Assembly (NCBI GenBank): GCA_937858825.1
Contig: CALMAI010000002.1
Coordinates: 2,759 to 66,758 of the forward strand
Direction: 5' to 3'
Length of the DNA: 64,000 nt
Source: an uncultured Candidatus Peregrinibacteria bacterium
GTDB taxonomy: Bacteria > Patescibacteriota > Gracilibacteria > UBA1369
Shown here: positions 2,830 to 14,897 of the stretch, piece by piece
Position numbering within the stretch: position 1 is the stretch's first letter
Layout of the letters: every line of letters starts with the position of its first letter
Translations under genes and position numbers: made by a program
The notes under the pieces: generated by a model
Seen by the model: the letters and a program-made list of their open reading frames with translations, nothing else
What the model was told of the DNA's origin: nothing
Database searches by the model: none

Positions 2830-3267
2830 TTATTTTTCGCAGAGTCCGCAGTGTCCTCCTACGTTCCCCATGAGAGCGAAGTTCATACCAAGGGCGAAAA
2901 GAGCCAGATCGGCATACATTCCAGCTATACCCTGAGAGAACCCATCGCCAAATCCTTTTGATTTTACGAGGATGATTGCTCCGAGCATGATGAGGGCAAT
3001 AATTCCACCACTCAAACGTGTGAGCATACCTTTTGCGTCTTGTGAGGCGATAAGTTTTCCAACAATGATACCAATACCGGCACCAAGCTCACCAAGAGCG
3101 ACGAGCCATGCAACGATTTCCGGGAGTCCCATTGATTGGGCAAATCCTGGAACAGTGAAGATGAAGATCTTCATGTATGAGGCATTGAGGAACACTATTG
3201 CCAGCACTAAACGCATGATCCATGATGATGCTTGAGCGCATTTGCACCCAGCTTGTGAATCTTTCAT
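2830..3267 (-). CDS. DoxX-family membrane protein
   Basis: 145 aa with four hydrophobic helices. DoxX-like pattern: LRLVLAIVFLNASYMKIF ... GLPEIVAWLVALGELGAGIGIIVG. Confidence 0.6.
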   Translation of the reverse strand: MKDSQAGCKCAQASSWIMRLVLAIVFLNASYMKIFIFTVPGFAQSMGLPEIVAWLVALGELGAGIGIIVGKLIASQDAKGMLTRLSGGIIALIMLGAIILVKSKGFGDGFSQGIAGMYADLALFALGMNFALMGNVGGHCGLCEK

Positions 3268-3344
3268 AAAGAATAAGATTAAAGGATTATTAAACTAAGC
3301 GGTATTGTAGCATTTGCGACCTTGAAAGCTCAACAACAGATTTC

Positions 3345-3388
3345 AAAAAGAGCCTGCGATTTTCATCACAGGCTCTTTGAATTTTTTG
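3345..3388 (-). terminator. rho-independent terminator downstream of rpsG (works in both orientations)
   Basis: aaagagcctg (3347-3356) pairs perfectly with caggctcttt (3369-3378). T-tracts flank the hairpin on both strands. Confidence 0.5.
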
Positions 3389-3401
3389 TGCGTCAGTTGC
3401 T

Positions 3402-3854
3402 TTAGTAACGTGCGTAGTGAGCAAAAGCCTTGTTGGCAGCTGCCATTTTGAGCGTGTCTTCCTTCTTCTTTACAGCTGCTCCTTCTCCGTTAGCGGCATT
3501 CAAAAGTTCGGTTGCGAGCTTTTTTGCCATTGGAGAACCCTTTCCAGACCGGGCTGAACCAATGATCCATCGGAATGCGAGTGCAATCTGACGGTTTGGT
3601 TTTACTTCAACCGGAATCTGATAAACCGATCCACCAATACGTTTTGCCTTTACTTCCATGTTTGGCTTCACGTTGTCGACCGCGCGTTGGAACACTTTTT
3701 CCGGATGTTGATCCTTTTTGGAAATGATTCCAAAAGTGTCTTTAAAAATGCGTCGCGCAGTGTTCTTCTTTCCATCGTTCATCAGGTAGTTGATGAATTT
3801 TTCCTGGAGTGGAGAAGAGTTTTCTGGAATGTGTGTGCTTCTTTTTTGAGGCAT
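3402..3854 (-). CDS. rpsG: 30S ribosomal protein S7
   Basis: Full-length S7 signature, including [19 protein letters not shown] ... [10 protein letters not shown] ... [33 protein letters not shown]-like C-terminus. Confidence 0.95.
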   Translation of the reverse strand: [150 protein letters not shown]

Positions 3855-3875
3855 ATGGAGGTTTAGAAGTTAGCT

Positions 3876-4289
3876 CTATTTCTTTGGTTTCTTAGCACCA
3901 TAGCGTGAACGTCCCTGTTTTCGGTCGTTTACACCTTGTGTGTCCAGCTTTCCACGGATGATGTGGTATCGGACACCTGGTAAATCTTTCACTTTTCCGC
4001 CACGAATCATTACAACCGAGTGTTCTTGAAGGTTGTGACCTTCACCTGGGATGTAGGCATTTACTTCAACACCGTTGGTAAGTCGTACACGAGCGTACTT
4101 TCGAAGCGCTGAGTTCGGTTTCTTTGGTGTCATAGTGGTTACCTTCAGGCAAACACCACGTTTCTGTGGAGAAGGGGATTTTACAGATCGATTCTTCAAA
4201 GTGTTGAAGGTGGTCTGCATAGCCGGAGACTTACTCTTTTTAGTCTTGTTCTGGCGTCCTTTCCGAATGAGTTGATTGATTGTTGGCAT
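3876..4289 (-). CDS. rpsL: 30S ribosomal protein S12
   Basis: [12 protein letters not shown] ... [59 protein letters not shown] is canonical S12. Confidence 0.97.
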
Positions 4290-4376
4290 ACTGTTTTATG
4301 TGTTAGAGATCACACTTTCGTGCGATCTGGCTTGCCTACTTTACAGAAATGGTTGTAAAAGTGCAAGCCAATTTTA

Positions 4377-7300
4377 CTAGATAATGGCAAACTGACGTTC
4401 ATCCTCTTCAGAAGTTTCATCCTCTGCTATTGGGGCTGGAGGCATATATTCTGGATTGAGCTTCTTGTAGGTCTCTCCTGCAGGAATAAGCTTACCGATG
4501 ATAACGTTTTCTTTGAGTCCTTCAAGGTTATCGATGCGGTTGGTGGTTGCTGCTTCAACCAATACACGGATGGTTTCCTGGAAGGAAGCGGCAGAGAGCC
4601 AACTATCGGTACAAAGAGAAACACGTGTAAGTCCGAGGAGGAGACGATCACCCTTGGCAATTCGTTTTCCATCCTTTTCAAGTTCCCGGTTTACCTCTTC
4701 AAACCGCATAATGTCGGTCATTTCTCCTGGGAGGAATACGCTGTCACCAGCGTCAAGGATTCGCACCTTTGAAAGCATTTGTCGGGCAATAATCTCGATA
4801 TGCTTGTCGTTAATGGTTTGTCCCTGTGAAGCGTAGATGCTCTGTACTTCGGTCATGATGTACTTCTGAACGGTGTAGAGATCGGTGAGCTTCATGAGTT
4901 CACGTAGGTTGAAGTGTCCTGTGGTAAGGGCCTGTCCCTTGTTTACCGTCTGGTTGTTTTGAACCTTGAGGGTTCGACCAAATGGAATGTCGTAGGTTTT
5001 TTCTACGTTTCCTTCACTTACAACGGTGACCATATCTTCTGATGCGTCCTTAATCTTTCCTGGACTCTTGGTTCGGATAACGCTCTTATTGTGCTTGTTT
5101 TTGGCAAGAACATCCTTTTCTTTTACGATATCACCCTTCTTCACAATGACTTCGTAGTCAGAAGTGATGTCGTACGCATCTTCAACCGGTTCTTCAGAGA
5201 TGAGTGTGATTTCTGTCTTTCCACCCTTTCGTGAAACTTTCACTTTTCCATCGATCTCTGCCAAGAGAGCAGGGCTCTTAGGAGTTCGGGCTTCGAAGAG
5301 CTCTTCTACACGGGTAAGACCCTGTGTAATATCACCTTCACCGGCTACACCACCCATGTGGAAGGTACGCATAGTAAGCTGCGTTCCTGGTTCTCCAATA
5401 CTTTGAGCGGCGATAATTCCGACGGCTGTTCCAACTTCAACAGTGTCGTTAGTTCCAAGGTCTTTTCCGTAACATTTTACGCAGATTCCACCCTTGGTTT
5501 GGCAGGTCATAACTGATCGGACCAGAACCTTATCAACGTTGTGATCGGTAATGGCTTTAAGGACATCTTTGTCGATCTCTTTGTCGGCTTCGGCAACGAC
5601 TTCACCAGACTTTTCGTCGGCGACTGCCTGAGCCAATACACGTCCGTAAATGCGGTGTTCAAAATTTTCACCAATCTGTTCACTCTCTTCACGAGTTACT
5701 TCGTGAGCAAAGCTTGATCCGCAATCGTCTTCACGGATAACAACGTCTTGTACAGCATCCACCAGACGACGTGTGAGGTATCCGGCTTCCGCTGTCTTAA
5801 GCGCTGTATCGGACTTACCTTTACGTCCTCCGTGTGTCGCGATGAAGTATTCAAGAATGGTAAATCCTTCCTTAAGGTTGGATTTAATTGGGAGTTCGAT
5901 TGTTCGTCCGGCTGGATTGGCAACGAGTCCCTTCATTCCGCAGAGCTGGGTGATCTGTCCCCAGTTACCACGCGCTCCAGAGTTGATCATGTAGTGAAGA
6001 TCGTTTTCGTCGTCGATACTTCCGATCATTGAGGTTGTGATGTCAGATTTGGCTTGTGACCATACTTTAATGGTGTGGTTGTAGCGTTCGTCGTCAGTGA
6101 TGAGACCCTTGTTGAAGAAGTCCTGAATCTTTTTGATGGCTTCAGATGCATCGTCGATGATTTTGTCTTTTTCTCCAGGGATAACCATGTCGTCCTGTCC
6201 GATTGAAAGTCCTGATCGGGTTGCGAAGAGGAATCCAATACGTTTGAGTTCGTCAGCAACACGTGACGTGATGGCATTACCACATTTTTCGAAGCAGTCT
6301 CCCACGAGTCGACCAAGTTTTTTCTTGTCGATGGTTTCGTTCAGATAGCCAATCTCTTTTGGAAGGAGGCTGTTGAAAATGATTCGTCCAATAGTGGTTT
6401 CTTTGAGTTCTGCTTCTTCTCCTTCGCCAACACGTGCGACGATAGGGGATTGAAGGTCTACATAACCCATTTGGTACGCCATCATGGCTTCGTTAACGTC
6501 GGCGAATTTCATACCTTCACCAGCTTTTCCTTCGGTCAATTTGGTGAGGTAGTAGCATCCCAAAACCATATCTTGTGTTGGGGTGATAATTGGATCACCG
6601 GCTGATGGTTTGAGAAGGTTTGCTGTTGAGACAATAATTTCGTGTGCCTCTTTTTGCGCTGATTGTGAAAGTGGTACGTGAACCGCCATCTGGTCACCAT
6701 CGAAGTCGGCGTTGAAGGCCGCACAAACGAGTGGGTGAATCTGAATCGCTTTACCTTCTACCAATACTGGTTGGAAGGCCTGAATACCAAGACGGTGAAG
6801 GGTTGGAGCACGGTTCAAGAGAACGTGTCGGTTCTTGGTTACTTCTTCCAGGATATCCCATACCTCTTTCTTACCAGCCTGGATCAGTTTTTCGGCATTC
6901 TTAATGTTGTGTGCGTATCCGTCACGGATCAGTTTTCCAATAACGAATGGCTTGAAGAGTTCAAGCGCCATAGTTTTTGGAAGTCCACATTGGTTGAGTT
7001 TGAGTTTTGGTCCAACTACGATTACTGAACGTCCAGAGTAGTCCACGCGTTTACCAAGAAGGTTTTGTCGGAAACGTCCCTGCTTACCTTTAAGCATGTC
7101 AGAGAGGGATCGGAGTTTTCGTTTGTCTCCACTGTTGAAGACAGTTTTTCCTTGGCGTGCGCTGTTATTTAAAAGGGTGTCGACCGCTTCCTGAAGCATA
7201 CGTTTTTCGTTTCGGCAGATTACTTCCGGCGCTCCAATAGCCATCAATCTCTTAAGACGGTTGTTACGGTTGATAACACGTCGGTAGAGGTCGTTGAGGT

Positions 7301-8249
7301 CAGATGCGGCGAATCGTCCACCATCCAACTGAACCATTGGTCGAAGGTCTGGTGGGATAACCGGTAAGACGGTCATAACCATCCATTCTGGTTTGATACC
7401 TGCTTTGAGGAGGCTACCAGCCAGTTTGATTCGTTTGATGATCTTCTTTTGCTTTTGTCCGGAAGCTTTCTTGAGGTTTGACTGAAGTTCGTCGATGAGT
7501 TTTTCAAGATCCAGGTTTTCGATGATCTGGCGGATTGCTTCTGCCCCGATTCCGGCTTTAAAAATTTGTCCAAACTTGGTGGACATGTCCCGGTATTCCA
7601 GCTCAGAAAGGATGTGTCCGATCTTGAGGTTGTCCAGATCGCTCTTGGCTTGTTTGTGCTGTTCATCGAGCTCTTCTACACGGAGAGCCAACTCTTTTTG
7701 TGCTTCTTCGTTGCCTCCTTTGTACTCATCCTGGAGTTTTTTGCGGAGTGTCTTGTACTCTTGTGTCAGCTGTTCTTTGGCTTCGTTTTTTGCTTCTTCG
7801 TCCAGTTCGGTCACGATGTATGCAGCAAAGTAGATGACTTGCTCGATCGCTTTAATTGGAAGGTCGATCAAAAGTCCAATACGGCTTGGTGTTGATCGGA
7901 GGAACCAGATGTGGCTGACCGGTACAGCAAGCTTAATGTGAGCCATGCGGTCACGTCGAACGCTTGATCGTGTTACTTCCACACCACACTTTTCACAAAT
8001 GACACCTTTGTATCGGATTCTTTTGTATTTTCCACAGTAACATTCCCAGTTCTTGGTCGGTCCAAAGATTCTTTCGCAGAAAAGACCGTCTCGTTCTGGT
8101 TTCTGTGTACGATAGTTAATGGTTTCAGGTTTTTTTACTTCTCCGTGTGACCAGGCCAGAATCTCTTCTGGAGAGGCAACAGAGATAGAGATGGAATCAA
8201 AGTAGTCAAGCTGGTTGACCGTTTGTTTCTCTTGGGTTTGTTGAGCCAT
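4377..8249 (-). CDS. rpoC: DNA-directed RNA polymerase subunit beta'
   Basis: 1290 aa. Zinc-binding [23 protein letters not shown], catalytic [12 protein letters not shown], and bridge-helix/trigger-loop regions are all recognisable. Ends with TAG. Confidence 0.98.
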
Positions 8250-8308
8250 AAGGGTGGAGATAAATTATTGTTGGGAGGGTTGTGGTGAGGCGTTGGCCTC
8301 AATTGTTG

Positions 8309-8911
8309 TTAGAGACCAAGGTCTGAATCGATGTCGATTGTTCCGCTTCCGCTGTCTGATGCGGTTGCGACAGGTTCTTTCTTTTCTTCTTGTGGTGGTT
8401 GTTCTTCCTTCATCGGTTCTGCTGCAGCTTCTGTTGATGTTTCAGCAGCTGGTTGTTCAGCGGGAGCCTCTTGAGGAGAGCTTTCAGGAGCTGAGCTTGA
8501 TGGGGCTTCCGATGAAGAGGTATCCATCGTTTCTTCAGAAGATGAAGTTTCTGCATAGTCCATTTCGTCTTCACCTTCACCACGCTTGTCGAGCATGATC
8601 ATGTCCTGGACAACGATCTCTGTTCGGAACTTCTTTACGCCTTCCGGAGTTTCCCAGTTACGGGTTTTAAGATATCCCTCAACGTATACAAGTTTTCCTT
8701 TCTTGAGATATTGTTCACAGATTTCTGCGAGTTTTGCCCAGGCGACAAGGTCGTGGTACTCAACAGAGTTCTGTTTGCGTCCGTCTTTGGTGGTCCATTC
8801 ACGGTTGGTGGCGAGGCCAAAGGTGGCAACGCTCTGTCCGTTTGGAGTTTCACGCATTTCAGGGTCGCGGGTGAGGTTTCCGATAAGAATGACTTTGTTA
8901 ACGCTTCTCAT
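8309..8911 (-). CDS. ssb: single-stranded DNA-binding protein
   Basis: N-terminal OB fold (MRSVNKVILIGNLTRDPEMRETPNGQSVATFGLATNREW...). This is followed by a long acidic/Ser/Pro linker and the acidic tip TIDIDSDLGL. The gene lies between rpoB and rpoC with 44-nt and 59-nt gaps and no hairpin. Confidence 0.9.
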   Translation of the reverse strand: MRSVNKVILIGNLTRDPEMRETPNGQSVATFGLATNREWTTKDGRKQNSVEYHDLVAWAKLAEICEQYLKKGKLVYVEGYLKTRNWETPEGVKKFRTEIVVQDMIMLDKRGEGEDEMDYAETSSSEETMDTSSSEAPSSSAPESSPQEAPAEQPAAETSTEAAAEPMKEEQPPQEEKKEPVATASDSGSGTIDIDSDLGL

Positions 8912-8955
8912 AATTGATTAATAGTTAGAAATTCAAATGTCGCTGTACGACGGGG

Positions 8956-11900
8956 TTAGGCTTCCAGCTCTTTTTCAAGCTCTTCTGCTTCTGCGATCTC
9001 TTCTTCTGTTGGTTCATCTTCATCAGATTCTGACTCGTCGTCAGCTGGGAGCTCTTTTTCACTCATGGTTTCTGGATCGACCCCTTCTTTTTCAAGGTTT
9101 TCGGCCAGATTCTCATCGAGCTCGTCTTTTTCGCTGACTGAATCTTTCATTGCTGCTTCTTCTTCCAGACTTTGTTCAATGGTGTACTCTTCTTCTTCGC
9201 TGGCAAGCATTTCTGTTTTATCAGTCTGAAGGAGTTTTACACTGAGTCCAAGACTCTGGAGCTCTTTCACCAAGACGTTGAACGATTCTGGTGTTCGAGG
9301 TTTCTTAATGGTTTCACCCTTCACAATAGATTCGTACGCTTTGGCACGACCATAAACGTCATCGGACTTAATGGTGAGCATTTCCTGAAGTGTGTGAGCC
9401 GCTCCGTAAGCTTCGAGCGCCCATACCTCCATTTCTCCAAAACGCTGTCCTCCATGTTGGGCTTTACCTCCGAGTGGCTGTTGTGTCACCAATGAGTAAG
9501 GTCCAACTGAACGCGCGTGGATCTTGTCTTCAATCAAGTGGCTGAGCTTCATGATGTAGGTAATACCAACGGTTGTTTCTCGGTCGAACTGTTCTCCAGA
9601 GAGACCGTCGTAGAGGCGTACTTTTCCGTGTGTTGGGAGTTCAGCTTCTTTAAGGAGTTCGGTAATTTGTGCTGGGCTAATACCGTTCAATGCTGGTGTA
9701 GCAACGGTGATTCCCATTTTCTTGGCTGCCCACCCAGCATGTGTTTCCAGGATCTGACCAATATTCATACGGCTGGATACACCGAGTGGGTTGAGGATGA
9801 TGTCGACTGGTGTTCCGTCAGGCATGAATGGCATGTCTTCCTGTGGAACGATAATCGAGATAACACCCTTATTTCCGTGACGTCCCGCTACTTTATCTCC
9901 AATAGAGATTTTTCGGGTTTGAGCCACGTTAACTTTAATTTGTTGGTTTACACCGGTTGGGAGTTCGTCTCCGTTCTTTCGTGAGAAGATCTGCACGCCG
10001 ACGACTTTTCCTCCTTCACCTCCTGGGAGGCGGAGAGATGTGTCTTTGACGTCGCGGGCCTTGTCTCCGAAGATGGCGCGGAGGAGGCGTTCCTCTGCGG
10101 TTAGTTCTGTTTCTCCCTTTGGAGTAATTTTACCAACAAGAATGTCTCCTTCGTGCACGGTTGCACCGATTCGAATGATTCCGTTGTCGTCCAAATCTTT
10201 CAATCGGGCTTCACCAACATTTGGGATGTCTCGAGTAATAACTTCCGGTCCAAGTTTGGTATCACGCATGTCGATGGTGAATGTTTCGATGTGAACAGAA
10301 TCGAAGATTCCATCTTTCACCACACGGTCTGAAATGATGACCGCATCCTCGAAGTTGAATCCCTGCCATGACATGTATGCCACGAGAAGGTTTTGTCCGA
10401 GCGCTACTTCACCCTTGTCGGTTGCAGCACCGTCAGCAAGAATGTCTCCACGTTTTACTTTTTGTCCTTTCACAACGAGTGCTCGCTGATGAATACAGGT
10501 TCCCTGGTTACTTCGTTGATATGTATGAAGTTTGTAGGTGGATTTCTTACCGTTTTTGTAGAGCACAACAATCTGTTCCGCATCAACATACGAGATGGTT
10601 CCATCTTCTTCGGCGAGGACTACTTGTCCGCTGCTCTTGGCAGCCAACTCCTCCATACCGGTTCCTACTACAGGAGCTTTTGGAGAGATGAGCGATACTG
10701 CCTGACGTTGCATGTTTGAACCCATGGATGCACGGGTATTGTCATCGTGCTCAAGGAATGGAATCAACGCGGTTGTTTCTGAAATAATCTGTTTTGGAGA
10801 GACGTCCATGTGGGTTGCCTCTTTTGCGTCGATTACTGTCGCTTCGCTATCGACACGGGCGGATACTCGTGGAGTCATGATCTGTCCAAGTTTGTCGAGT
10901 TCGGTATTGGCCTGAACGATTACGAGATCTTTTTCTTCGTCGGCGTCGTAGTATTTGATGTCATCCTTTACATATGGAATGACTGGAATTTCGTCGAGGC
11001 CAGATTTTTCGAGTTGTTTTGCGAGTTTTTCGTCGATAACGGTTCCAGTTTTAGCAAGGAGTTTTCCTTTTGAATCTTTCACTGGGGCTCCAATAGTTCG
11101 TCCTTCGAGCTCAGAAGCTTTTGCTGGAGCGGTTTGTTGTACCTCGCGGAATGGAGTTTCAATAAATCCGTATTCGTTTACACGAGCGTAGGTTCCAAGG
11201 TGGACAACAAGTCCAATGTTTGGTCCTTCTGGTGTAGAAATAGGACAGATACGACCATAGTGAGATGGATGCACGTCACGAACGTCAAACGATGCACGTT
11301 CACGTGAAAGTCCACCTGGTCCCATCGCAGAAAGACGACGTTTGTGGGCCAGTTCCGCAAGTGGATTGGTCTGGTCCATGAACTGTGACAGCTGTGAGCT
11401 GGCAAAGAATTCACGGAGTGCCGCTGTTATTGGACGAGAGTTCACCAATTGGGTTGGTGTCACGGTCTCAAGATCCATAACGGTCATACGGTCTTTTGCA
11501 ATTCGGTCGGTTCGAAGAAGTCCCACGCGGAACTTGTTCTGTACCAGTTCTCCAACGGCACGAACACGTCGGTTTGAGAGGTGATCGATGTCGTCTGGTC
11601 GTTCTTGTCCGTTGTTGAGTTTGATCAAGTGCTTGAGGATGTAGACCAAATCAGAAACCTGGAAAGTGTGATTCTCTTTCTTGTTTGGCACATCGATTTG
11701 GAAGCGCTTGTTGAGTTTGTATCGCGCTACTGGTCCCATGTCGTATTTTCGATAGTCGAAGAACATGGACTGGATGAGTGACTTGGCATTTTCTGGTGTT
11801 GCCAGGTCTCCTGGGCGGATTTTCTTATAAATGTTTTGGTATGCTTCATCTTCTGTCTTGGCACCGTCTTTATCCAATGTGTTTTGGATGAAATCTTTTT

Positions 11901-12834
11901 CCGGTCCCATGATTTCGTCGGCAAACAGATCTTTAATCTCTTTGTCTGTTGAATATCCGAATACACGGAGAAGGGAAGTGATTGGAATTTTTCGTTTTCG
12001 GTCGATCTTTACGGTGATGATCCCTTTCTTATCGGTTTCAACTTCCAACCATGCACCACGCTTTGGAATAATTTTTGCGTTGTGCATTCCTGGCGCAGCG
12101 GCGTTGGTAGAGAAGAAAACACCTGGTGATCGCACCAATTGGCTGACGACAACTCTTTCAATACCGTTAATAATGAAGGTTCCACGTGTGGTCATGAGTG
12201 GGATTCCTCCAAGGAAAACGTCCTGTTCTTTAATTTCTCCAGACTCTTTATTAATAAGTTGTACGTGAACCTTGAGTGGTGATTCGTAGGTAAGGTTCTT
12301 CATTTTGCAGGTTTCTGCGTCGTATTTTGGTTCTCCAATTGAGTGTTCCAAAAAGTGGAGTTCCAGCTTCTTGCCAGAGAAGTCCTGAATTGGGGTAATT
12401 TCGTCCAAAAGATCCCGGATTCCATCTTGCAGGAACCATCGGTATGAGTCGATTTGCACTTCAATAAGATTTGGAAGCGGTACTTTCTTGTCGATTCGTT
12501 CAGAGAAAAATTTTCGTTCGCTTTCTTCTTTAATATAGGCTTCGATTTTCGGGAGAAGTGTGTTTACTTCGTCCAGTACGCTCTGTGAAGCTTTTTGCTT
12601 TGAAAGTGTTTTGAGTTTCTTGGTTGTTTTTACTTCAGACACGCTTGAAGAGGCCTTCGTGGATTTGGTTGTTTTGGAAGGAGCTTTTTTAATTGCTCGC
12701 TTTTCGGTTGTTTTGGAAGGAGCCTTTTTAATGGCCCGTTTTGTTGTTTTTTTTGCAGCAGAAGGCTTTGCCGCTTTTTTTGCTGTAGGAGCTTTATTGC
12801 TCTTAGCTGATGCGGCAGTTTTTTTCTTTGGCAT
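8956..12834 (-). CDS. rpoB: DNA-directed RNA polymerase subunit beta, with basic N-terminal and acidic C-terminal extensions
   Basis: 1292 aa with canonical RpoB blocks (e.g. [19 protein letters not shown]-like [53 protein letters not shown]). About 95 aa of K/A/P/T-rich sequence precede the conserved core. About 90 aa of E/D-rich sequence follow it. Confidence 0.98.
   Translation of the reverse strand: [1292 protein letters not shown]
12667..12744 (-). repeat. 39-nt tandem duplication inside the rpoB 5' extension
   Basis: 12667-12705 and 12706-12744 match at 33 of 39 positions by hand alignment. They encode [13 protein letters not shown] / [13 protein letters not shown]. Confidence 0.8.
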
Positions 12835-12993
12835 AGATAAAAACGTGAAATAATAGCTGAGGGAAACGCCATTCTGAGGCGTTCACAGGACTATCTTCCA
12901 CAACACAATCGGTATACCTTATTATAGGTAATCAGTCTGATAGCTGGGCAAATTCTATAGAATTTTGCGGCTTTGTCAAATGAATTTTCATTC

Positions 12994-13581
12994 TTATTTT
13001 GTTTTGTTTGTACTGTTTTTTTCTTTTTTCGCAATTTTCATTGTTTTGTCGAAAAGATACTCAACCGTGGTAAGAATATCTTTGGCGGTCTTAGAATCAG
13101 GATCAACCAAAATATGGTGAAGTGCTTCCTCTTCATCTGTAAAGAATTTTATATTTATCCCATTAACCAGATTTGCTTTTCGTTGAAGGAATAAAAAACT
13201 GTCGGTAACCAGCTTGGTTGTGATGCTTGAGTTTGGGTTCAATATTGCCATGCGGTATGTTTCTGGAATTGTTTTTTGTTTCATTTTTTCCATGAACTTT
13301 TTCGCTTGGTCTTTATTGGGGGCTTTATTCCTGGGAATCCAGACAAGACATTGGCTACAGTTCATATTGCTAATACTGTGAAAGATGAAATCTATGGATT
13401 TATCCCAGTCGGGATCAGTAGGGTGTTGATCGATATGCGAAAAAACCATGATTGGGGAAGACTTGGTTTTTATCAGGGCGGAAGAGAGCGAAGGTGTGAT
13501 AACCATGTCCAGAATGGGAATGGTCTGTCGCTCAATAGAAGTTTTTAACCGAGAGAAGGGGCTGCGAAATTGATCTTCCAT
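12994..13581 (-). CDS. hypothetical protein (possibly SpoIIAA/STAS-like)
   Basis: 195-aa ORF. The only hint is a C-terminal ...INIKFFTDEEEALHHIL pattern reminiscent of SpoIIAA-like (DUF3478) proteins. This is weak. Confidence 0.4.
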   Translation of the reverse strand: MEDQFRSPFSRLKTSIERQTIPILDMVITPSLSSALIKTKSSPIMVFSHIDQHPTDPDWDKSIDFIFHSISNMNCSQCLVWIPRNKAPNKDQAKKFMEKMKQKTIPETYRMAILNPNSSITTKLVTDSFLFLQRKANLVNGINIKFFTDEEEALHHILVDPDSKTAKDILTTVEYLFDKTMKIAKKEKNSTNKTK

Positions 13582-13625
13582 ATGACTATTACATGATATT
13601 TTTTTGGAAAAATCAAATTTAAACT

Positions 13626-14897
13626 CTATTCCGAAAGCGCTTCCAGAGGTTTAAGGTGCGCGGCCCTGGCTGCCGGAATGAAGGCGAAGACTGTGGAGAG
13701 GATGATTGCAAAAATGATAATGCCGATGATTGTTGGGAGGTCGTAAACAAGGAGGGTTTCGGGTTTGCTGGATACATCGGGGAAGGATGCCAGGGCAATA
13801 GCATCGACGGCGAAGCCCACAATGTAGCCAATGATTGTTCCGCTGACTCCGCCAATTAAGCCAAGGAGGGCGGCTTCGGTGAGGAAGATTTTTTGGATGT
13901 GTCCGCGGGTGGCACCGACGGCGCGTAAAATGCCAATCTCCTCTTTGCGTTCGTTCACGGCAGAAAGGAAAGTGTTGGCGATCGTTAATCCACTTACAAA
14001 AAGGATCATCAGGCTGATCATGCTGAGTCCAACGGTAATAATGCGGAAGTTTTGTTCAAAGATCTGGATCTCTTCCTGAGCGGAAGAGGTGATGTATCCT
14101 AATGATTCAATGTCTTCTGCAACGGCCGGAACATTGCTTTCTTTATCCACCTCCAAAAAGATTTTTGGATACTTTTCTTCGTAGTCGGGATTGGCCTCTT
14201 TGTTGAGCTGGCGGACGATATCAATAGGAAGGGTTATGCCAACAAGATCCACTTTTGTGGAAAACCCGGCGATGCGTGCTTTGCGGGAAGGTCCCTCGGA
14301 ACCGAGTTGTGGAAAGAATGTGGATTGCCCAGGCAGGACAATGAATTCGATGCCGGAAATATCTTCTTCTTTAAAGGAGGGGAGGCTGTTGGTTGGGGCG
14401 ACAGTGACGTTGTAGAGATCGATGATGCGGCGACTGATGATGGCCGGGTATGGTTCTTCTGACTCGTTAGCTATGAGTTCCGGACGGATAATGTCTTCTT
14501 CTAAAAGTTCAAATGGGAGGCCGAAGATCATGGAGTCGGTCTGGAATGATTGACCCAGGAGTGTGACGCGCAATGATGAGAGGTTTTCATAATTGATTTG
14601 TGGATATGTGGCTTCTACATGGTTGATTTGTGCCAGTTTTTCCAGATCTTCCGGCTTGAGACTGTTTTCTGAAAGTTGCGTGAAGCTGCGGAGAAATCCT
14701 GCTTCGCCTGCTTTTGGCTGGACGGTGAGTTGAGTGAGGGATCCTTTGCTGGTGATGGATTCGATGACAGCAATTCGAAGCCCATTACTAAATGCCAAAA
14801 TCCCCAAAAGGGAAGCGGTTCCAATGGCAACACCTATCGTGGTGAGAATGGTGCGTCCTTTTTGGGCGAGTAGATTTTTTTTAGCGAGAAGGAACAT
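13626..14897 (-). CDS. ABC transporter permease, MacB/FtsX family
   Basis: N-terminal TM helix, then a large extracytoplasmic domain, then a C-terminal FtsX module (ISLMILFVSGLTIANTFLSAVNERKEEIGILRAVGATRGHI...). Lies directly downstream of a LolD/MacB-type ATPase. Confidence 0.85.
   Translation of the reverse strand: MFLLAKKNLLAQKGRTILTTIGVAIGTASLLGILAFSNGLRIAVIESITSKGSLTQLTVQPKAGEAGFLRSFTQLSENSLKPEDLEKLAQINHVEATYPQINYENLSSLRVTLLGQSFQTDSMIFGLPFELLEEDIIRPELIANESEEPYPAIISRRIIDLYNVTVAPTNSLPSFKEEDISGIEFIVLPGQSTFFPQLGSEGPSRKARIAGFSTKVDLVGITLPIDIVRQLNKEANPDYEEKYPKIFLEVDKESNVPAVAEDIESLGYITSSAQEEIQIFEQNFRIITVGLSMISLMILFVSGLTIANTFLSAVNERKEEIGILRAVGATRGHIQKIFLTEAALLGLIGGVSGTIIGYIVGFAVDAIALASFPDVSSKPETLLVYDLPTIIGIIIFAIILSTVFAFIPAARAAHLKPLEALSE

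Follow-up and report, generated by a model that had tools for sequence, protein, structure and literature searches.

Several systems are known in which more than one OB-fold single-stranded DNA-binding protein (SSB) is encoded in a single bacterial genome, among them the SsbA/SsbB pairs of Bacillus subtilis and Streptomyces, which combine a housekeeping protein with a specialised one. The accessory SSBs of these pairs either lack the C-terminal tip or are regulated with competence or sporulation, and we know of no Bacillus or Streptomyces accessory SSB that is encoded in the rpoBC operon. Few gene pairs in bacteria are as stable as rpoB-rpoC. That an SSB can act in transcription has a precedent in archaea, namely the interaction of SSB/RPA with RNA polymerase described for Sulfolobus SSB. 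The literature that we searched, including PMC2837039, contained no description of an ssb gene between rpoB and rpoC, nor of a DLGL tip or multiple SSBs in Peregrinibacteria. The gene described here lies in a 64,000-nt stretch of an uncultured Peregrinibacteria genome (hereafter, the window) and, as judged from sequence, belongs to a family of SSB paralogues specific to its clade, whose client-binding tip is derived and whose operon position is unreported in that literature.

The protein encoded between rpoB and rpoC (the embedded SSB) shares with E. coli Ssb the OB fold, the DNA-stacking aromatic residues, an equivalent of His55, and a disordered linker that leads to an acidic tip whose positions -6, -2, and 0 are hydrophobic. 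It differs in the tip itself, which reads I-D-x-D-L-G-L rather than the F-D-D-D-I-P-F of E. coli, and in a linker that is acidic and rich in S/T/P/E/K, whereas canonical linkers are G/Q/P-rich. Its context differs as well, given that the gene is found between rpoB and rpoC instead of in rpsF-ssb-rpsR and coexists with three other SSB genes. Like the SsbA/SsbB pairs, this is a case of several OB-fold SSBs in one genome; unlike the accessory members of those pairs, the embedded SSB has kept its long tail, and its variant tip is strictly conserved. Sulfolobus SSB belongs to another domain of life, has another architecture, and is not known to have an operon link.

The first-pass annotation had reported a 200-aa ssb between rpoB and rpoC on one strand, with gaps of 44 and 59 nt, and all of these coordinates were confirmed; the strand is the minus strand. 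The rpoB gene (8956-12834) encodes an RNA polymerase beta subunit of 1292 aa with six Rpb2 Pfam domains, a lysine-rich N-terminal tail, and an acidic C-terminal tail. It is followed by a 44-nt spacer (8912-8955), in which a weak 5-bp stem (8939-8951) precedes AUUUGAAUUU, and then by ssb (8309-8911; protein P0001), whose stop codon occupies 8309-8311. A second spacer of 59 nt (8250-8308), with a 6-bp hairpin that has no U-tract (8286-8301; fold z-score -1.8), leads to rpoC (4377-8249), which encodes a beta-prime subunit of 1290 aa with five Rpb1 domains. Directly 3' of rpoC is rpsL (3876-4289), and rpsG (3402-3854) lies 3' of rpsL on the rpoC strand. On the other side, an intervening segment (12835-12993) separates rpoB from a conserved open reading frame of 195 aa without a Pfam match (12994-13581, minus strand), beyond which lies an FtsX/ABC transporter pair; rplJ-rplL does not precede rpoB. 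The same gene, at 192 aa, is found ahead of rpoB in ERZ794931. An Rfam search of 3000-14000 at E values up to 0.1 returned no known RNA family, and neither did a search beside the DLPF-tipped paralogue described below.

A chimeric or mis-binned contig could in principle create such an arrangement, and the first-pass annotation had raised this as a reason for caution. The identical 200-aa SSB is present in ENA ERZ794931, Logan SRR2107182, and GCA_035326795.1, which are three independent assemblies, and in all three the FtsX-192aa-rpoB-ssb-rpoC order and the 44- and 59-nt gaps are unchanged. The same rpoB-ssb-rpoC order occurs in about 58 other Peregrinibacteria or Peribacteria assemblies, including the complete chromosomes OZ246407.1, OY970195.1, and OY969931.1, and GC content is flat across both the rpoB-ssb and the ssb-rpoC junctions. 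Nothing that we found supported chimerism or mis-binning, and we give this explanation virtually no chance of being correct.

Domain searches and structure prediction agreed that the embedded gene encodes a genuine SSB. The protein matched PF00436 (E value of 5.8e-38; 129.6 bits against a cut-off of 26) and TIGR00621 (161.1 bits against a cut-off of 53.95), which, together with the AlphaFold and Foldseek results, place the ssDNA-binding and oligomerisation OB fold in residues 1-112 (8576-8911). In the AlphaFold model, residues 4-110 form a five-strand barrel with a helix at pLDDT values of 85-91, while the tail is disordered except for a short, low-confidence helix at the tip (residues 194-197). 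Solved SSBs made up all of the best Foldseek matches in the PDB (E values as low as 6e-14; TM-scores, normalised to target length, of 0.8-0.9, up to 0.91), and a sequence search of the PDB returned SSBs alone, led by Salinibacter ruber 5odn (E value of 4e-37). By BLASTP, the OB domain was 47% identical to that of E. coli SSB. Residues W39, Y52, H53, W58, and W86 fall opposite E. coli W40, W54, H55, F60, and W88, of which W40, W54, F60, and W88 are the DNA-stacking residues and H55 is the tetramer-interface histidine.

The tail that follows the OB fold (residues 113-200; 88 residues) is rich in S/T/P/A and contains 24 D/E against 3 K/R, which bears out the long, acidic Ser/Pro linker noted earlier; the linker proper covers residues 113-191 (8339-8575), is acidic and S/T/P/E-rich in composition, and is predicted to be disordered (pLDDT <50). 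A [DE][YF]xP[EDQ] motif after the OB fold was present in 38 of 59 embedded SSBs compared to 1 of 19 rpsF-linked copies, and in the window's SSB it is degenerate (DYAE). We also considered an SsbB-type competence SSB, a candidate that is ruled out by the 88-residue tail with its conserved tip; the short paralogue on contig C25 of the same genome fits that description better than the embedded SSB does.

The C-terminal tip, IDIDSDLGL (residues 192-200; 8312-8338), closes a protein that ends in ...TIDIDSDLGL, and the canonical [DE]-[DE]-[IL]-P-F end is absent. All 58 complete embedded SSBs in the window's order end in I-[DS]-x-D-L-G-[LI]. A logo of these 58 orthologues showed I at -6 and D at -3 in 56 sequences each, L at -2 and G at -1 in every sequence, and L (55 sequences) or I (3 sequences) at position 0. 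The 19 rpsF-linked SSBs from the same set of loci all end otherwise, with DGIEF, EENIF, DGNVF, DKIEF, or D[IV]FEG. When L-D-I-D-S-D-L-G-L is set beside M-D-F-D-D-D-I-P-F of E. coli, the layout matches at every position: the hydrophobic residue at -6, Asp at -5 and -3, the hydrophobic residues at -2 and 0, a turn-prone residue at -1, and the free carboxylate are retained, while aromatic residues have become aliphatic and Pro has become Gly. Given this shared layout, we interpret the tip as an SSB-Ct motif in derived form rather than a tail of a new type. The earlier observation of a non-canonical tip thus stood, with conservation in orthologues (G at -1 in 58/58), but the tip appears to be a conservative derivative of the canonical motif. 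Embedded SSBs in other orders carry different ends, some with a terminal F (GDDLNF, DDLDNLF) and some without a hydrophobic terminus (SFELPK, PLFEEEENK, EDASEKK). These differences indicate that DLGL is an innovation of the window's order, with the operon position being older, and that the function of the tip would not be tied to that position.

The L-G-L at the extreme C terminus of 55 of the 58 orthologues also resembles the C terminus of E. coli Pol IV, QLVLGL, and could be read as a beta-clamp-binding motif through which the SSB would tether the sliding clamp. The tip does not follow the QL[SD]LF / QLxLxL pattern, in which Gln comes first and Leu second; the defining Gln at -5 is Asp here (41/58), and the Leu at -4 is replaced by a variable polar residue (K, S, A, or Q). 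The whole nine-residue tip fits the SSB tip pattern at each position, which is the simpler explanation, and we therefore regard clamp binding through LGL-COOH as very unlikely.

The survey of rpoB-rpoC intergenic content proposed in the first-pass annotation showed that the arrangement is a lineage trait and is not peculiar to the window's genome. A family-alignment scan of species-representative genomes yielded 80 loci, nearly all labelled Peregrinibacteria, Peribacteria, or Gracilibacteria. In 57 of these, rpoB, ssb, and rpoC are colinear; another 4 have one flank and a contig end at the other, and 19 are SSBs in the rpsF context. The OB domains of related loci are 70-99% identical to that of the window. 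For the class as a whole, rpoC was located in 147 of 151 genomes, and the upstream DNA was read for 59 genomes in addition to that of the window, drawn from 32 families. An embedded ssb was present in 15 of 28 informative families: five in the window's order (f1, f2, f4, f6, and f7) and ten in other orders (f12, f16, f18 [1 of 2 genomes], f19, f21, f23, f24, f30, f31, and f35). It was absent from f8, f9, f10, f17, f22, f25, f27, f28, f29, f32, f33, and f34. Within the window's order, families f3 and f5 lack an ssb in the rpoB-rpoC spacer, and the SSB copies retrieved from them included none with a DLGL tip; both keep a DLPF-tipped copy, and f3 also has an F-tipped, rpsF-linked copy. The lack of the embedded gene in f3 and f5 implies that it is dispensable there. 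The possibility had been raised that the arrangement was a widespread, already catalogued trait with a canonical tip in orthologues; widespread it is, across 15 of 28 families, but the tip is non-canonical in the orthologues.

In other classes of the phylum, an ssb adjoining rpoC was found in none of 86 sampled genomes, almost all of which have a single SSB. Among 20 of these that were checked, the gene was in rpsF-ssb-rpsR in all 20 and its product ended in [ED]DIPF in 19. In 21 other-class genomes, rpoC and the single rpsF-ssb-rpsR locus were 7-25 kb apart (mostly 8-14 kb), on opposite strands in 19 of the 21. This looks like a recurrent neighbourhood, and it may have eased the original transfer of ssb into rpoBC. 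In family f26 an ssb follows rpoC in place of an embedded one: locus L119 (genome G020) encodes a DLPF-tipped SSB (...DVNDLPF; 7585-8040) about 520 nt 3' of rpoC on the same strand.

The space between rpoB and rpoC has also accepted other genes. In eight relatives (loci L054, L055, L057, L060, L063, L072, L078, and L084), a Na+/Ca2+ exchanger gene (~320 aa; PF01699, E value of 3e-55) lies between ssb and rpoC, and in 3 of the 4 f3 genomes read (L088, L089, and L143) the exchanger lies between rpoB and rpoC with no ssb. Since the exchanger is inserted with or without ssb, the spacer is a recurrent insertion site in the window's order. In locus L112 (genome G016, family f22), the rpoB-rpoC spacer encodes a 511-aa probable surface or secreted protein. 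Families f13 and f14 (L098-L103) have no rpoB within 3.2 kb upstream of rpoC, where there are unrelated genes instead. Taken with the exchanger, these cases mark the site as permissive in the class, and rpoBC linkage is unusually loose in the window's class.

The gaps around ssb are short throughout. The rpoB-ssb gap had a median of 41 nt (range, 11-174; 57 loci) and the ssb-rpoC gap a median of 49 nt (range, 13-160; 49 loci), and hairpins with a U-tract were found in 2 of 49 rpoB-ssb gaps and 0 of 49 ssb-rpoC gaps. The first-pass annotation had seen no visible hairpin in the two gaps, and this needs qualification: the two small stems at 8286-8301 and 8939-8951 are present, but neither is a convincing intrinsic terminator, and the latter is limited to the window and its closest relative (L006). 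Because the gaps lack terminators, rpoB, ssb, and rpoC are likely co-transcribed, and rpsL and rpsG may be in the same transcription unit. A consensus scan detected no promoter-like site inside or just 5' of ssb. The sole strong promoter-like site lies upstream of rpoB (12952-12979, minus strand), 118 nt 5' of the rpoB start; it was identified by its consensus match (TTGACA-16-TAGAAT; 11 of 12 positions) and is a candidate promoter for the rpoB-ssb-rpoC unit. Terminator-like sites in the region were no commoner than in shuffled sequence, and the count of promoter-like sites was likewise not above that in shuffled sequence; given these counts, we took the scan for promoters and terminators as weak support.

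Elsewhere in the window's genome (1.32 Mb in 46 contigs; 96% complete), the search for a second, canonical ssb that had been suggested earlier was successful. There are four PF00436 genes in total. One paralogue, at C23:44435-44935, lies between a methyltransferase-like gene and gmk and ends in the canonical ...VPVDDLPF; another, at C19:98001-98465, occupies the rpsF-ssb-rpsR slot and ends in ...EQPAEQAA; and the one on contig C25 is short, nearly tail-less, and ends in ...LVEVETA. The idea that the housekeeping ssb had been displaced from rpsF-ssb-rpsR was not upheld, given that a copy in that slot and the DDLPF-tipped copy are both kept among the four. The OB domain of the rpoBC copy is 71% identical to that of the rpsF copy and 62% identical to that of the DDLPF copy. 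The genomes of 8 relatives, including 3 complete chromosomes, carry the same four SSB classes in matching contexts: proteins with [IV][ED]DLPF tips in the methyltransferase-like/gmk context, DLGL-tipped proteins between rpoB and rpoC, proteins with tipless acidic tails in rpsF-ssb-rpsR, and ~125-aa copies with LVDVPA-like ends.

We considered whether the embedded SSB could be the main replicative SSB of the lineage, placed in the strongest essential operon for high expression, with the other copies being accessory. The strong conservation of its OB domains is in line with this, as is draft genome G157, in which the DLGL-tipped and short copies alone were found. However, f3 and f5 manage without an embedded copy and keep the DLPF-tipped one, and it is the DLPF class, with its canonical tip and G/Q-rich linker, that groups with the housekeeping SSB of other classes. 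A replicative role for the embedded copy therefore seems improbable to us.

This grouping comes from a tree of the OB domain (112 columns), in which the DLPF class (98% support) falls with the single, rpsF-linked [ED]DIPF SSBs of other classes. The DLPF class is thus probably the ancestral housekeeping gene, now outside the rpsF slot. The embedded SSBs and the rpsF-linked copies of the window's own order form a separate clade with 96% support, within which the embedded genes of other orders branch first. This branching order points to an old embedded family, from which the copy in the rpsF slot of the window's order would derive. Within the order, the embedded and rpsF-linked copies are interleaved in the tree, as gene conversion or repeated duplication between them would produce. 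AU tests did not reject a single clade for either group (p = 0.17 and 0.11), and we leave the choice between these histories undecided.

The reading that we favour, with a probability of roughly 60%, is that the embedded ssb is a functional, class-specific accessory paralogue with constitutive expression coupled to that of RNA polymerase and with clients of its own. The protein would bind DNA through an OB core that retains the stacking aromatics and the tetramer-interface histidine, followed by the long, acidic, disordered linker, and its I-D-x-D-L-G-L tip keeps the canonical client-docking architecture. Early in the evolution of the class, the paralogue family probably entered the rpoB-rpoC spacer, where it has remained. 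A single rpoB-ssb-rpoC(-rpsL-rpsG) transcript is predicted to start at the rpoB promoter, and production from this promoter would make expression constitutive and tie it to that of RNA polymerase. Through its variant tip, the embedded SSB may select a set of clients unlike that of the co-resident DDLPF-tipped SSB, in which case labour would be divided among the four SSBs. The operon position would then serve expression, and physical contact with RNA polymerase would not be required.

Such contact is central to a different proposal, in which the embedded protein is a transcription-associated SSB whose DLGL tip or acidic linker docks on RNA polymerase or on a transcription-coupled factor, such as a helicase or an R-loop-removing enzyme of the RNase H type. 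The task of the SSB would then be to cover R-loops or the non-template strand, or to intervene where replication collides with transcription, with its amount relative to beta and beta-prime fixed by the shared mRNA. The retention of the rpoB-rpoC position across several orders is consistent with this, and the DLPF-type ssb after rpoC in f26 provides a second association of ssb with rpoBC; nevertheless, the site is permissive and has accepted unrelated genes, and the tips differ between orders while the position is constant. The acidic C-terminal tail of RpoB is longer where ssb is embedded (median, 88 versus 64 aa; Mann-Whitney p of ~1e-6), but this difference is confounded by phylogeny. The basic N-terminal tail of RpoB is not tied to the presence of ssb either. 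In the window, this lysine-rich tail is encoded at 12550-12834; its length varies between 2 and 244 residues in close relatives (L006-L083), with up to 70 K/R, and it is present in some genomes without an embedded ssb and absent from some with one. The charges of the two tails correlate weakly and in the wrong direction, and overall tail length and charge gave weak correlations whose signs disagreed (rho of +0.38 and -0.34). We rejected co-evolution with the RpoB tails as a sign of RNA polymerase contact on the grounds of phylogenetic confounding and these weak, inconsistent correlations. Docking on the transcription machinery is, in our view, unlikely, and that the protein is an SSB dedicated to this role, with its DLGL tip or acidic linker docked on RNA polymerase or a transcription-coupled factor, is slightly less probable still. 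If it were true, one mRNA would supply RNA polymerase and an ssDNA-coating hub in a fixed ratio, and the two would cooperate on the non-template strand, R-loops, or replication-transcription conflicts; a cellular bacterial SSB would thereby be linked to the transcription machinery for the first time.

A gene kept between rpoB and rpoC across several orders is unusual, and the embedded ssb could serve as a synteny marker for lineages in the Peregrinibacteria/Gracilibacteria class. Genomes of ~1.3 Mb with four SSBs, compared to one in the rest of the phylum, amount to a natural experiment in client selection, and the DLGL and DLPF tips within one organism could show how SSB hubs pick their clients.

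Two proteins other than SSBs, encoded in the same genome but outside the window, have ends that recall SSB tips. The ribosomal protein S6 encoded at C19:98495-99046 (minus strand; PF01250, residues 3-94) is extended at its C terminus by ~90 aa, with an abundance of acidic residues and lysine and an SSB-tip-like end, ...IIDNPDLNF; the ssb directly 3' of this extended S6 gene has lost its hydrophobic tip. At C4:70955-72250 (minus strand), an orphan of ~405-431 aa without a Pfam match ends in ...DDYDNDDDIPF, an exact canonical SSB tip, and this non-SSB protein could be an SSB-tip mimic or competitor.
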